DNA of 32,000 bases from Acaryochloris thomasi RCC1774 (GCF_003231495.1 NZ_PQWO01000021.1:1-32000), one strand, 5' to 3'; counted from the stretch's first letter, positions 9,602 through 14,122 are shown. Made by a program: numbers and translations. The notes: a model not told the origin generated them from the letters alone.

Positions 9602-9853
9602 ATGGGTGTTGTGAAAATTGATGTTCCTGATGAAGTTCTGGTGAGTCTAAAAGAATCAGATGTAAGTATCTCTCAGGAGTTATCTATACTCGCTGCGGTG
9701 AAACTCTTTGAGCTGGGAAAACTTTCGTCCGGGCGGGCGGCTCAGTTAGCAGGGATGTCAAGGGTTGAATTTTTAGGCAAATTAGGGCGATATCGCGTCT
9801 CACCCTTTGATCTTTCTAGTGAAGAGCTAGAGAACGATGTCCTCAACGCCTAA
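9602..9853 (+). CDS. UPF0175 (COG2886) family antitoxin-like protein
   Basis: 83 aa. LAAVKLFELGKLSSGRAAQLAGMSRVEFLGKLGRYRVSPFD matches the UPF0175 pattern. Overlaps the downstream PIN gene by 17 nt. Confidence 0.8.
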   Translation: MGVVKIDVPDEVLVSLKESDVSISQELSILAAVKLFELGKLSSGRAAQLAGMSRVEFLGKLGRYRVSPFDLSSEELENDVLNA

Positions 9854-10340
9854 CGCTAAGATTATTGTCAACACTTCACCACTACTCTATCTGCATCAGG
9901 TTGGTCACCTTGACCTACTGAAACATCTATATCAGGAGGTCTCGATTCCGAAGGCTGTCCAGCAGGAGTTGCAGGCTGGTGAACATAAGGGAATTGATGT
10001 TCCTGTGCCTGAATCGCTTGAGTATATTCAAATGCTTGAGGTTGATAATCCGGCCCTGATTCCCAATGTGACTGATTTAGGGCAGGGAGAGGCCGAAGTG
10101 ATTGCTCTTGGCATTCAGCATCTCGGAAGTTTGAGTATTCTGGACGATCAATTGGGACGACGCATTGCTAAGCTTTACGGACTTCAATGTACTGGAACGC
10201 TTGGTGTGTTGATCAAAGCTAAGCGGGAAGGATATTTAACCGCTGTTGCTCCGATCATTGATAGCCTGCGTCATCAGGGGATGTGGCTTAGCGATCGCAT
10301 CATTAGCGATATTTTGGTGCTTGCTGATGAAGTCCTTTGA
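9837..10340 (+). CDS. DUF3368 PIN-like nuclease domain protein (putative toxin)
   Basis: 167 aa. IIVNTSPLLYLHQVGHLDLLKHLY..LGQGEAEVIALG..ILDDQLGRRIAKLYGLQCTGTLGVLIKAKREG follows the DUF3368/COG2405 PIN-like pattern. Confidence 0.8.
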   Translation: MSSTPNAKIIVNTSPLLYLHQVGHLDLLKHLYQEVSIPKAVQQELQAGEHKGIDVPVPESLEYIQMLEVDNPALIPNVTDLGQGEAEVIALGIQHLGSLSILDDQLGRRIAKLYGLQCTGTLGVLIKAKREGYLTAVAPIIDSLRHQGMWLSDRIISDILVLADEVL

Positions 10341-10435: not shown

Positions 10436-10891
10436 ATGCGAGAGTTTGATTTCACGCTGAAGTTCAAACTTAGCGACATTCAGGCTAATCCTGAAGACCA
10501 TCTTGAAGCGCTCTATGAAAGTGGATGTGATGATGCGGTTGTCGGCGTTGGGAAGCTTGGACAGGTCTCGCTCAACTTTTTTCGTGAAGCCTCTTCTGCT
10601 TGGGAGGCGGTTTCAAGTGCGATCGCAGATGTGAAGCGGTCGATTCCGAATGTGGCTTTGATTGGGACGAGTACTGATCTTGTTGGGCTAACAGAGGTGG
10701 CTCACCTGCTGGGGCACACCCGACAAAATATGAGGAAGTTGATTGTTGAGCACGGTCCAGGTTCTCCGTTACCAGTCTATGAAGGAACGCCTGCGCTTTG
10801 GCATTTGGCTGATGTTTTGAGCTGGTTAGAAGCAGAGAAGGCTTATTCTATTGATGTCTCTCTCTTAGAGGTTGTCCAAACGGCTAAATAG
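10436..10891 (+). CDS. Two-domain protein with C-terminal excisionase/MerR-like HTH (possible antitoxin or regulator)
   Basis: 151 aa. The C-terminal LTEVAHLLGHTRQNMRKLIVEHGPGSPLPVYEGTPALWHLADVLSWL looks like an HTH_17/AlpA-type DNA-binding motif. The N-terminal ~80 aa domain is unassigned. AAGGA SD lies 8 nt before the ATG. Confidence 0.5.
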   Translation: MREFDFTLKFKLSDIQANPEDHLEALYESGCDDAVVGVGKLGQVSLNFFREASSAWEAVSSAIADVKRSIPNVALIGTSTDLVGLTEVAHLLGHTRQNMRKLIVEHGPGSPLPVYEGTPALWHLADVLSWLEAEKAYSIDVSLLEVVQTAK

Positions 10892-10925: not shown

Positions 10926-11382
10926 TTGACCCACAGAAAAGTTTGGGGATGCTGGCAGTTTAATAGAACTTTTCGGAAGGAGAGAAGTCACAGATTTTCA
11001 GAGTCCATTAGAGGTTTGATTGTTTCTGCGAAGTGTATGGCTGAGATCGCAAAGCTAGCTTTTGATGTCTGTCATTCCCCAAAATCCAACCTGGCCGGAG
11101 TACCTTCAAGGGGGAACGCTTGGTGATGGCTATAGGCTCTGGTTGCGGGCTAAGTTGTTCCAACAGTACCGGCTGTTCTTTCGATATCACCTACAAAGCA
11201 AGGTGATTATCTATAGCTGGGTGAACTATACAGCGACCAAACGGGCTTATGACAGCAAGACCGATGCCTATCGAGTGTTCGCAGAGATGCTGGATAGTGG
11301 CCATCCTCCAAATGACTGGGCAGAATTGCTGCTGGAAGCTAGAGCCATCGTGGATCGCTACAAAGGTATCGATGAGCTGTGA
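10926..11382 (+). pseudogene. yhaV: YhaV-family toxin (ribonuclease) gene, apparently frameshifted near 11056-11070
   Basis: ORF 11062-11382 reads IPQNPTWPEYLQGGTLGDGYRLWLRAKLFQQYRLFFRYHLQSKVIIYSWVNYTATKRAYDSKTDAYRVFAEMLDSGHPPNDW, close to E. coli YhaV (..RYRLFFRYSEKEKVIILGWMND..KTDAYTVFSKMLKRGHPPADW). The expected N-terminal ~45 aa lie in another frame (10926-11126, ..AEIAKLAFDV), and a TAG at 11056 blocks the C-terminal frame. Confidence 0.6.
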
Positions 11383-11686
11383 AATTTAGGTAGTAAAGAC
11401 CAAATATCAAAGAGCTTCAGGGAATCAAATACCGTATTTTCTACTTTTTTGTCGAAGGAGGCTGATAAAGCGGTTGCTTGCTAATGCCGCGTTGAAAGTG
11501 ACTTAGGCATCTACACTTAGCAAAGGATGAACCCACCATCGAGCAGCATATTTCTAACACTCTAAATATCTTGCTTAGTGAGTTCTATGGAGATCAGCTC
11601 ATATGTTTCACAATCTTGAAATCAGAGAGAGTGAATAATACCTTAGTGTGGGCACTCTATGAGTCACATAAAACTGCAAGAATAAA

Positions 11687-11695
11687 TGGTATAAA
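11687..11695 (+). promoter_or_regulatory. Extended -10-like promoter element upstream of the low-GC cassette
   Basis: TGgTATAAA at 11687-11695 sits in a 370-bp AT-rich leader, about 58 nt before ATG 11754. There is no convincing -35. Prediction by eye only. Confidence 0.3.
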
Positions 11696-11753
11696 TTAAT
11701 TAAACAAAAAAATATCTTAGACTCAATGACCTGAGAGAATCGAGATCAATAGT

Positions 11754-13043
11754 ATGGTATTTGACAATCAATCAGTTCAAGACAAGAGTGCAGTAGCTGC
11801 TTTATTACACAGTCAGATGAATTTATCATACTCTGATTTAAGAGACAATAGCCAGCTAAGTAGAAACAGGTATTTAGTCAAAACATATGTCATTGAGTTT
11901 ACGCCCGGAGAAAATTCATCTATTACTGACTTGAATGAAGATAAAATCGAGACATTATTTTCATTCAAGTCAAAAAAGCAAGAACATCATCCAGTCATTC
12001 AGACGACAGGAGACAGAAGTTTGTACGTATTAAGATGGAAATACAATGATAATGATATTGAGGCATATTTAGATATTTCTCCTGTACAGAACGACTGTAG
12101 ATTTTGGTTTCTTGACTCAGTTTCTAAAGCGGATGTTTTAGATATTGTAATCAAAAAAATAATCAACCAGTCTACAGAATTGGATAGGATATGGATTTGG
12201 CCAAGTCTTCTTAAAGAATTTACACAAAAAGGTCAGCTAAGAGGTTTTGATCTGACTTATGATTACAGGAAATTTGAGACGCAAGAAAATATATCTCAAG
12301 CAGAGTATCGAGCAGAAGTAGAAGACCCACCAAGACAAGTAAATACGAGGCCAGTTGAGGAAGAATGTGAATCAACAGTAAAAGAGCTTAAACAATATCT
12401 AACTCTTAGTGCTAGGGGAGGAGGAGAAGTATCAGATGCATTACATGAACTATTTCAAACAGATTCACTTCAAGAGAAGGTTGTACCATCGAAAATTAGC
12501 ATCAAGTATAGGGGCGAAGAAAATAGTATTCAGAGAGTGAGTCAATCAAACTTTGCTATAGAGACAATTCAGTATGATGGCAAGTTTGTTGTAAAGGGCA
12601 CTTCCGTTCTCCTGCATAAAGAACTAGTGAATGAAATTCGATCAAGATATTCAACAAAGATAAGAGATATAGAGAAAAGACACATAATCAAAATTATTGG
12701 AAAAGAGGATAAGATAACTGATGCGGTCGGCGAACCACTTTATTTCAACTTTGAATCAAAGCCTATAGAAAATTTGATCGACTTCTGTAAAGTTGTTTTT
12801 TCAGGGAAAGATCCATTTTTTTTATGGGGAGTCCCTAGAGAGGTTGATGATGGACTTATTGTTCACTCAATAGATTTAAAAACTGGATCAAAGATGAATT
12901 TTCAGATATATAGAGATGTTGTCTCACTTTCTCTTGAGTTGGGATCTTGTGGGAATTCTGTAGTAAGGTTTTTCACAAATATACAACAATCGTTTAGCTG
13001 TCGAATCACTGCCGAGGATGCTGATGGAGTCTCCGTCTTTTAG
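11754..13043 (+). CDS. Hypothetical protein, 429 aa, no recognisable domain (cassette gene 1)
   Basis: Long uninterrupted ORF in AT-rich DNA, where stop codons are frequent. Lys/Asn/Ile/Asp-rich codon usage unlike the neighbours. Acidic linker EYRAEVEDPPRQVNTRPVEEECEST separates two modules. No Walker A, nuclease, TM or signal motif that I can defend. Confidence 0.8.
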   Translation: MVFDNQSVQDKSAVAALLHSQMNLSYSDLRDNSQLSRNRYLVKTYVIEFTPGENSSITDLNEDKIETLFSFKSKKQEHHPVIQTTGDRSLYVLRWKYNDNDIEAYLDISPVQNDCRFWFLDSVSKADVLDIVIKKIINQSTELDRIWIWPSLLKEFTQKGQLRGFDLTYDYRKFETQENISQAEYRAEVEDPPRQVNTRPVEEECESTVKELKQYLTLSARGGGEVSDALHELFQTDSLQEKVVPSKISIKYRGEENSIQRVSQSNFAIETIQYDGKFVVKGTSVLLHKELVNEIRSRYSTKIRDIEKRHIIKIIGKEDKITDAVGEPLYFNFESKPIENLIDFCKVVFSGKDPFFLWGVPREVDDGLIVHSIDLKTGSKMNFQIYRDVVSLSLELGSCGNSVVRFFTNIQQSFSCRITAEDADGVSVF

Positions 13044-13917
13044 TCTGAAATTAATAAATATTTTCATAGGCTTATTCTATGGAGTCAAGAACAAGTTCCT
13101 CAAGGAGTACTCCTCTGAAATTGTAAGATTGGGATATAAGTTTATAGAAGTCGAACCTAAATTCTATTCAAGCTTGTCCAATAATAGTGTCAATCCCGAA
13201 GCGATTTCTCACTCTTATACTAGCCATCAAACTCTTCAAGTCGAGTGGACAGAGGAAAATAGACCTTCAGAGAGGAAGCAACAGCAAATCCGAAAGTATC
13301 TAAATGTTCAGCCTGAAGATATAAGTGATATAGTTTCCGATAGCTCAGTCTGTATTAATACATGGTTGATTGTTGCAGAGCAATCAAGAGCAAACTTCTC
13401 AGACTATCTTAAAGAACATAATGAAGATGATTTAAGCAAGCTGTCATTATGCTCATTTGCATCTAACGATAATGGTAACAATATTGACTTTGTTCTGGGA
13501 TCATTTCAAGATGATGGTTTTCTTAAGGTGATTAAAGAGGGGATAAGTCTGAAAAGAATTTCCTATGATTATGTTAAGTATGACTTTAATAATTTACAGT
13601 CGATTGAGATAATCGAAAGAGTGATAGGACAGATTCTGCAATACCAAGTTCAAGGTAATCTAGAGTTCTCTGTTGAAGCTTTGGCTGCTGGTTCGTTTGG
13701 ATTTTGGGATTTTCTAAGCATGGAAAAGCGAAGTAGTATAAGAAAGAGAGTGAATGAAATAGTTAAAGAATTCTCAAAGAAGAATCCTAAGCTTATTGCT
13801 AGAGCTATCGAGAATCCGCCTGTGTGGAGAATCACTTCTTCAGCCTTATCTCTTGGTAACCAATCCGCTAAGTTTATAGAATTAAAAATGGGAGAACAGT
13901 CTGAAGTGGATTCTTGA
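13018..13917 (+). CDS. Hypothetical protein, 299 aa, no recognisable domain (cassette gene 2)
   Basis: Long ORF with the same composition as gene 1. ATG 13018 (or 13024) lies inside the last 26 nt of gene 1, suggesting translational coupling. No motif recognised. Confidence 0.75.
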   Translation: MLMESPSFSLKLINIFIGLFYGVKNKFLKEYSSEIVRLGYKFIEVEPKFYSSLSNNSVNPEAISHSYTSHQTLQVEWTEENRPSERKQQQIRKYLNVQPEDISDIVSDSSVCINTWLIVAEQSRANFSDYLKEHNEDDLSKLSLCSFASNDNGNNIDFVLGSFQDDGFLKVIKEGISLKRISYDYVKYDFNNLQSIEIIERVIGQILQYQVQGNLEFSVEALAAGSFGFWDFLSMEKRSSIRKRVNEIVKEFSKKNPKLIARAIENPPVWRITSSALSLGNQSAKFIELKMGEQSEVDS

Positions 13918-14122
13918 TTCAATATGAAGATATTAAGAGGTTCACTCTGCCTTGCTGAAAGTCAGGCGATAGGACTTGTCAAAGTTATTGAAGTGGTTTA
14001 GCGGCTAGAAAAATTTGAGATAAGTATTAGGAATAAAGGATGCTTTCAACATAGTGGCTTGGCATAGAGGTTCTAACGGTTGAATCCCATGTTTGAGTTC
14101 CGCACGTCTTCAGTTTCCCCTT

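Follow-up and report, generated by a model that had tools for sequence, protein, structure and literature searches.

What is a pair of genes of foreign composition doing in Acaryochloris thomasi RCC1774? The question is raised by a 32,000-nt stretch of DNA from this organism (the window; all positions are counted from its first letter), in which positions 11383-14122 had been picked out as a low-G+C cassette of two overlapping open reading frames, ORF1 and ORF2, beside toxin-antitoxin (TA) genes. The original prediction could assign neither protein and proposed a horizontally acquired, undescribed defence or addiction system. The overlapping arrangement is as described, with products of 429 amino acids (aa) and 297 or 299 aa encoded on the + strand and annotated as the hypothetical proteins C1752_07854 and C1752_07855. 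On sequence grounds, the two genes form a module, complete in itself and acquired horizontally, of the MJECL33 and MJECL32 families, and ORF2 is a predicted RecB-type PD-(D/E)xK nuclease with a winged helix. Taken jointly, an imported module, an obligate pair and an effector that couples a PD-(D/E)xK domain to a winged helix make up a description in which we have high confidence. As to what the module does, we favour, tentatively and at slightly less than an even chance, a nuclease-based role in defence or conflict, directed against phages or plasmids.

The segment is compositionally foreign. Its G+C content is 0.358 (35.8%) against 0.502 (50.2%) for the remainder of the window, and the value is similarly low in ORF1 (0.353), ORF2 (0.359) and the leader that precedes them (0.361), whereas 218 control windows of 2740 bp each ranged from 0.469 to 0.542 (standard deviation 0.015), with none below 46.9%. 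The G+C content of third codon positions (GC3) is 0.28 in ORF1 and 0.34 in ORF2, compared with 0.605 in the nifJ-like gene downstream. The tetranucleotide L1 distance between the segment and the rest of the window reaches 0.565 against a control-window maximum of 0.211, so that in windowed G+C and in tetranucleotide usage the segment lies beyond every control window. The steep fall in G+C extends from about 11450 to about 14050. The octamer HIP1 (GCGATCGC) is found at 21 sites in the window, where shuffled sequences predict 0.36, and a scan of the window gave no site between 10627 and 15183, in keeping with the HIP1-free stretch that had been noted. Taken alone, this absence is weak evidence: a stretch of 2.74 kb should contain about 1.8 sites (P(0) about 0.17), and the probability of the 4.56-kb gap is about 0.05. 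Low G+C by itself would also depress the site count. Horizontal acquisition, as originally proposed, is borne out by the foreign composition of the segment and by the wider family, in which 20 of 21 loci, drawn from different organisms, have a pair poorer in G+C than the DNA on either side, the difference reaching 22 points.

Contrary to their description as unassignable, both proteins belong to catalogued families. A public protein identical to ORF1 (P0001) and all four of its relatives carry a precomputed match to PF25924 (MJECL33), and in a tblastn comparison ORF1 matched MJECL33 on NC_001732.1 with an expectation value (E) of 1e-23 and 97% coverage. ORF2 itself has no precomputed match to PF27326 (MJECL32), and its relatives P0007 and P0010 match weakly; a profile of 14 ORF2 relatives from which MJECL32 had been excluded finds MJECL32 at E 1.3e-18 with the motifs aligned. 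By these sequence comparisons, ORF1 is a member of the PF25924/MJECL33 family and ORF2 of the PF27326/MJECL32 family. In the PHROGs collection, 58 of 58 tested ORF1-type sequences match phrog_22469 and six ORF2-type sequences match phrog_27163, both function-unknown. ORF1 and ORF2 are not paralogues of one another (hhalign probability 0.4%). Searches of ORF1 and ORF2 against local Pfam-A, NCBIfam and PADLOC libraries returned zero matches, where the local Pfam-A may lack the PF25924 model, and no literature naming MJECL32, MJECL33, PF25924, PF27326 or phrog_22469 was found in the searchable library. The two families are named after adjacent function-unknown genes on the 58-kb plasmid (large extrachromosomal element) of Methanocaldococcus jannaschii, a pair that is like ORF1 and ORF2 in families, gene order and overlapping layout; each of the two pairs is also set among TA genes of the PIN/VapC type. 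They differ in that identity between the proteins is merely about 25%, in the greater length of MJECL32 (438 aa), which is extended at its N-terminus and has about 80 residues inserted, and in that MJECL32 keeps the canonical ExK lysine whereas ORF2 of the window has ExT plus K87.

Close relatives are rare, a word-indexed search giving four for ORF1 and four for ORF2, while an exhaustive profile search placed 480 clusters at 50% identity in the ORF1 family. For comparison we fetched 13 loci from species-representative genomes, 80 metagenome loci and several plasmids, the 13 being spread over many bacterial phyla among 185,579 species representatives (one search pattern). An ORF2 homologue directly followed the ORF1 homologue, adjacent, on the same strand and in the order MJECL33 then MJECL32, in all 73 non-redundant loci with at least 950 bp of downstream sequence. 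The two genes overlapped in 67 of 72 loci, with a median spacing of -20 nt, which indicates translational coupling; therefore the proteins are most likely made together and most likely act as a complex. The check on whether the genes are conserved as neighbours, which had been put forward with the original prediction, thus came out in its favour. No conserved third gene emerged from an all-against-all BLAST of the neighbours, the largest neighbour cluster being present in 4 of 76 loci.

Plasmids of archaea and Bacillota carry the pair, that of M. jannaschii included, and the archaeal cases lie on plasmids. Overall, about 10 of 72,556 plasmid records contain it, all of them large and typed as non-mobilizable. 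At the other extreme, locus L110 has the pair alone between housekeeping genes, scpB on one side and DUF4139/hemE on the other. The 50,697 phage records, searched by tblastn with two different queries, and IMG/VR gave no match to the pair. An origin in phages was thus rejected, although the families match the two PHROGs of unknown function. A self-mobile element resembling an insertion sequence was likewise rejected, because flanking inverted or direct repeats were no better than in shuffles in 17 of 20 loci and the protein cluster of the window was seen on one contig only.

The prediction for ORF2 comes from the pattern of conserved residues in its N-terminal half. A motif table of 76 ORF2 homologues shows an acidic residue (E or D) at position 46 in 74 of them and at positions 61 and 76 in 75 each; P60 is kept in 71, Q90 in 75 and Y94 in 73. 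The ORF2 family thereby has the PD-(D/E)xK motifs in their order: an acidic residue, D or E at the start of a strand, (D/E)xK on the next strand and QxxxY on the helix after it. The statement that neither protein has a recognisable nuclease motif was therefore mistaken for ORF2. Similarly, of the string IEVEPK that had been singled out in ORF2, the conserved E46 forms part of the predicted nuclease site and the remainder is not conserved. Archaeal and Bacillota members show the canonical PD...(E/D)xK...QxxxY arrangement, which in MJECL32 reads ITPDVIL...LIFECKSK...EQLEKY, whereas the clade of the window has E-W-T in place of ExK and a lysine, K87, in the next helix. This exchange is correlated across the family. 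Residue 78 is K in 51 of the 76 homologues, of which 38 have E or D at position 87, and T or S in 24, of which 23 have K there. We therefore read the swap as a relocated catalytic lysine in a site that is probably under selection. Other PD-(D/E)xK enzymes are known in which the catalytic lysine has moved.

Structure prediction is consistent with such a domain. The AlphaFold model of ORF2 has a predicted local distance difference test score (pLDDT) of 87 and a predicted template modelling score (pTM) of 0.82, and the motifs map to its strands 62-66 and 71-78 and its helix 85-95. Foldseek returned weak matches to YaeQ, MGME1, BsmI, PD-(D/E)xK proteins of hytrosaviruses, an MmcB-like protein and winged helices, with those to PD-(D/E)xK proteins spanning E 0.002-0.1. 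The Pfam matches of MJECL32 are all sub-threshold and are to PD-(D/E)xK families only (L_protein_N, HSDR_N_2 and DUF234), and no Pfam PD-(D/E)xK model matches the ORF2 family at significance. The C-terminal part is modelled as a winged helix (helices 196-212, 219-227 and 235-255; strands 216-218, 260-264 and 269-272), for which Foldseek gave matches to MarR, F-112, Cdt1 and TubR, and a search with the ORF2 family profile found the C-terminal part of the Cch helicase (5dgk, residues 409-504; E 3e-4). The conserved residues follow one another as they do in nucleases of the RecB/Cas4/lambda-exonuclease type, from which ORF2 differs in the relocation of the lysine in a third of the family and in the fused C-terminal winged helix. 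Since the ORF2 family has no invariant or near-invariant cysteines (19-sequence alignment), and hence no counterpart of the iron-sulfur cysteines of Cas4 and AddB-type nucleases, we rejected an assignment of ORF2 to either of these types.

ORF1 is less readily described. It has two conserved regions, at about residues 1-175 and 265-429, in agreement with the two modules that had been proposed; the acidic linker said to join them is an insertion private to the protein of the window and is absent from its homologues. Among 53 diverse homologues, R116, G282, E307 and D374 are invariant, and K43, E48, D107, D144, K277, H288, Y299, C399, N401, R405 and N409 are nearly so. Because so many charged residues are invariant or near-invariant, the conservation suggests that ORF1 is an enzyme or a binder of a ligand or DNA. 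Pfam scans of the ORF1 family gave no match to a nucleoside triphosphatase (NTPase), helicase or methylase family, and profile searches with 5 and with 53 sequences found no relative in the PDB at E up to 10, nor did a search with a fused relative of 576 aa (P0125). The AlphaFold model, from a 5-sequence alignment, is poor (pLDDT 45), and its Foldseek matches (AdoMetDC, N-terminal domains of RnlA and Aha1-like proteins) are uninterpretable. Two candidate motifs proposed for ORF1 were rejected on inspection of the homologues. In RDIEKRH, thought to have HEPN-like spacing, only E307 is invariant, and R304 and H310 vary (20 and 53 homologues). In VDDG-x7-DLK, likened to PD-(D/E)xK, only D374 is invariant; the DDG and K376 vary, the latter position being most often H, and no profile lends support.

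We asked what surrounds the pair in other genomes. Its commonest neighbours are defence, TA and mobile-element genes. On the M. jannaschii plasmid these are genes for PIN and EVE proteins, an ATP-dependent endonuclease and VapBC; on pBFR_2 of B. cereus a MazF-like gene and Hachiman hamAB lie by the pair, hamAB about 1 kb away. Elsewhere the pair stands beside genes for HsdR and YgjP (L020), a type IIG enzyme (L012) or a KAP NTPase (L023). In the loci of the closest relatives (L001-L005), parA and a gene for a ParG-like or ribbon-helix-helix (RHH)-like protein lie directly 5' of the pair; L001 is plasmid-like and carries ParA together with QatC-like genes and an E1/E2/JAB cluster, and the L007 contig carries ParA/ParB, an integrase, a resolvase and transposases. 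In 39 further loci the leading neighbour domains were ResIII, MazE, integrase, DNA methylases and DDE transposases. In line with the defence-type neighbourhood that had been noted, the pair recurs outside the window on plasmids and beside restriction-modification, TA and other defence genes.

Some of these neighbours are of interest in themselves. Beside the closest metagenomic relative, at 11352-15910 of L001 (and also in L002 and L003), genes for JAB, E2 (UQ_con), an 85-aa product and E1 (ThiF) make up a cluster with the composition of the bacterial ubiquitin-like (Bil-type) anti-phage systems, and on the other side of the pair in L001 lie a QatC-like gene and a gene for a helix-turn-helix-peptidase M78 protein. 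On plasmids of Bacillus cereus (L108, 6971-7708) and Metabacillus (L027, 6841-7557), a protein of 238-245 aa annotated as PemK/MazF is encoded about 180-220 nt 5' of the pair on the same strand. The two copies match each other at E 1e-69, and no other locus encodes the protein. In these organisms it may be a third component restricted to their lineage, and its confinement to Bacillus and Metabacillus led us to reject it as a conserved third gene. The type IIG enzyme of L012 (6856-9708, - strand) has a Pfam match to Y1_Tnp, the IS200-like transposase, at residues 353-452; it falls between methylase segments and would be either an odd fusion or an artefact of ORF calling. Among the metagenome loci L030-L107, a MazE/AbrB domain is present in four neighbours whose length, 140 aa or more, is unusually great for MazE-type antitoxins.

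No match of the pair to a named system emerged. Searches of ORF1 and ORF2 against PADLOC-DB v2.0.0, which covers systems to 2023 and includes Hachiman, Gabija, Septu, PARIS, Shedu and the PDC and HEC candidates, gave nothing at E up to 1. In the PADLOC and profile searches, of the kind that had been advised, neither a named defence system nor a housekeeping family matched either protein. The general plan is nonetheless familiar. Hachiman (a HamA PD-(D/E)xK effector with the HamB helicase), Gabija, Septu and PARIS likewise join a nuclease to a larger partner in two genes, and systems of the Hachiman type, like the pair, are patchily distributed and located in defence islands. Unlike HamB, ORF1 shows neither a helicase nor an ATPase motif, and there was no PADLOC or Pfam match of the pair to HamA/DUF1837, HamB, GajA/B, PtuA/B or AriA/B. 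If it is a defence system, the pair would add to the two-gene nuclease type a variant that is unusual in its NTPase-free partner and formed by families that are catalogued and functionally blank.

How such a module might work can be outlined. ORF2 would be the effector, its PD-(D/E)xK nuclease domain joined to a DNA-binding winged helix, and ORF1 would be an obligate partner that senses a trigger or restrains or directs the nuclease. ORF1 may then license ORF2 to cut the DNA of an invader, or that of the host in an abortive response. A stronger form of this proposal, which we consider possible if doubtful, is that the pair is a previously unrecognised immune system of Bacteria and Archaea that works without an NTPase, in which ORF1, with a novel fold, would respond to infection or to foreign DNA by activating ORF2, a nuclease of RecB type with a winged helix, the relocation of the lysine marking two mechanistic subtypes. 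Several observations weigh against a role in defence. It is not apparent how self would be told from non-self, because no methylase is conserved with the pair. ORF1 has no assignable fold, so that its part as sensor or regulator is one that we purely infer, and 77 family members searched against PADLOC-DB v2.0.0 gave only a chance-level match to Csm6 (E 0.004). The fold matches of ORF2 are all weak, the best Foldseek values being E 0.012 (PDB) and 0.002 (viral) with TM-scores (template modelling) below 0.5, and in the window ORF2 has T for the ExK lysine, so that its activity would depend on the proposed relocation. Many of the neighbourhoods, about half, are of a housekeeping kind (complex I, cytochrome c assembly, scpAB, a tRNA synthetase, LigD), and the defence-type neighbourhoods are descriptive counts.

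Other roles could be played by the same parts. An addiction module, with ORF2 as a nuclease toxin and ORF1 as a large antitoxin, would serve to stabilise plasmids or islands rather than to resist phages. The gene order and the frequent overlap (67/72) are those of type II TA operons, in which the putative neutraliser lies 5' and, here, the nuclease 3'; the pair occurs on large plasmids, TA genes surround it in the window, on the M. jannaschii plasmid and in Bacillus and Metabacillus, and proteins with MazE domains are its second commonest neighbours in the 39 further loci. However, both proteins are far larger than typical type II components, the modelled DNA-binding winged helix sits on the putative toxin rather than on the putative antitoxin, the invariant charged residues in two domains of ORF1 are more like those of an enzyme or ligand binder than of a neutraliser, and many copies lie in chromosomal housekeeping contexts. 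We regard addiction as unlikely. Somewhat more unlikely still is a part in the replication, recombination or integration of plasmids or islands, for which ORF2 would bind DNA and cut it at specific sites, in a role like that of TnsA or of an accessory of a replication initiator, and ORF1 would be its catalytic partner. The position of the pair directly 3' of parA and the ParG/RHH-like gene in L001-L005, the ParA/ParB contig L007, the resemblance of the ORF2 winged helix to C-terminal regions of the Cch helicase and of phage primases, and the integrases and transposases that are frequent neighbours would all fit such a part. Tn7 TnsA in particular has an N-terminal, restriction-enzyme-like PD-(D/E)xK domain, a C-terminal winged helix, a length of about 270-300 aa and an adjacent larger partner, as does ORF2; the partner of ORF2 lies upstream, unlike that of TnsA, and the pair is single-copy with no consistent terminal repeats. 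In Pfam scans the pair matched none of the TnsA, DDE-transposase and Rep families, the top 50 Foldseek matches of ORF2 in the PDB included no structure of TnsA, and the candidate of a TnsA-like transposition nuclease was rejected. Against a mobile-element role more generally stand the scarcity of the pair among plasmid records, where its carriers are large and non-mobilizable, its presence next to housekeeping genes on chromosomal contigs of megabase scale, where no further mobile-element gene is conserved, the lack of any match in the phage collections, and flanking repeats at chance level, with the cluster of the window on a single contig.

A horizontally transferred accessory of DNA repair or processing, with no function in conflict, seems very unlikely to us. 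RecB-type PD-(D/E)xK nucleases with the QxxxY motif are common in repair, and LigD, a PolB fragment and exonuclease VII are encoded near the pair in single loci. Yet linkage to repair genes is not conserved, G+C is below that of the host almost everywhere, and the spread is sparse and patchy, with those 13 loci among all the species representatives searched. A nuclease-based module of defence or conflict thus remains the reading that we prefer.

Table 1. Positions of ORF1, ORF2 and their parts in the window, with the leader and the low-G+C segment.
Feature	Position	Strand	Remarks
ORF1	11754..13043	+	429 aa; MJECL33 family (PF25924; phrog_22469)
ORF2	13024..13917	+	297 aa (299 aa if begun at the other ATG, 13018); MJECL32 family (PF27326)
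ORF2 N-terminal domain, predicted PD-(D/E)xK type	13018..13512	+	motif table; weak Foldseek and Pfam matches
ORF2 E46	13153-13155	+	predicted nuclease-site residue
ORF2 P60-E61	13195-13200	+	predicted nuclease-site residues
ORF2 E76-W-T78	13243-13251	+	predicted nuclease-site residues
ORF2 K87	13276-13278	+	predicted nuclease-site residue
ORF2 Q90-x3-Y94	13285-13299	+	predicted nuclease-site residues
ORF2 C-terminal domain, predicted winged helix	13585..13842	+	about residues 190-275, followed by a terminal helix
GAGG, putative ribosome-binding site	13014..13017	+	within the end of ORF1, 6 nt 5' of ATG 13024; read from the sequence
AT-rich leader	11383..11753	+	371 bp; extended -10-like TGGTATAAA at 11687-11695
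Imported low-G+C, HIP1-free segment	11450..14050		approximate edges from a 300-bp G+C profile (0.32-0.40 inside, 0.44-0.58 outside)

The layout of the genes within the window is given in Table 1. Of the two possible starts of ORF2, ATG 13024 is the likelier, because the placement of the GAGG, the 297-aa public annotation and the N-termini of the homologues agree on it; with this start the overlap with ORF1 is 20 nt, and a GAGG inside the end of ORF1 is compatible with translational coupling of the two genes. The TATA-like string that had been pointed out in the leader is present, although a consensus scan did not call a full sigma-70 promoter there. We found neither a conserved small ORF nor a conserved non-coding element in the leader, no similarity by tblastn or blastn to the upstream genes or leaders of the close relatives, and, in a scan for non-coding features, no tRNA genes and no credible Rfam matches. 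Within ORF1, codons 58-73 (11927-11972, + strand) contain a near-perfect inverted repeat, with arms of 18 bp around a loop of 10 nt, whose RNA folding energy is -21.1 kcal/mol against a median of -7.25 for 60-nt windows of the segment. It occupies a weakly conserved part of ORF1 and is missing at the equivalent position in four relatives; an A-run lies 3' of the repeat, which is therefore not an intrinsic terminator for the + strand.

On the upstream side, the neighbours agree with the PIN TA pair and decayed YhaV toxin that had been described next to the cassette. A UPF0175 and PIN/DUF3368 pair occupies 9602-10340, and a YhaV fragment at 11062-11382 (+ strand) covers profile positions 46-137 of 138. 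Just 5' of this truncated gene, a 151-aa ORF at 10436-10891 (+ strand) matches the PADLOC candidate PDC-M06B over its full length at E 3e-59, and together they may be what is left of a candidate defence pair of the toxin type. The MJECL33/MJECL32 pair marks a small variable island, made up of the PIN TA genes, PDC-M06B, the decayed YhaV and the cassette, just 5' of the nifJ-like gene.

If the pair is indeed a defence system, it would be a compact one of roughly 2.2 kb, common to Bacteria and Archaea, and an ORF1 with no recognisable fold, ATPase, helicase or methylase would raise the question of how invaders are sensed and the host's own genome is spared. The prediction of a nuclease with defined catalytic residues would stand even if a role in defence does not. 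The correlated move of the lysine offers a natural experiment for work on structure and function in this family, and the ORF1 family numbers roughly 480 clusters at 50% identity. The genes of M. jannaschii that gave the two families their names are still without a function in public records; with the pair in A. thomasi, these families gain a prediction of nuclease activity that can be put to the test.

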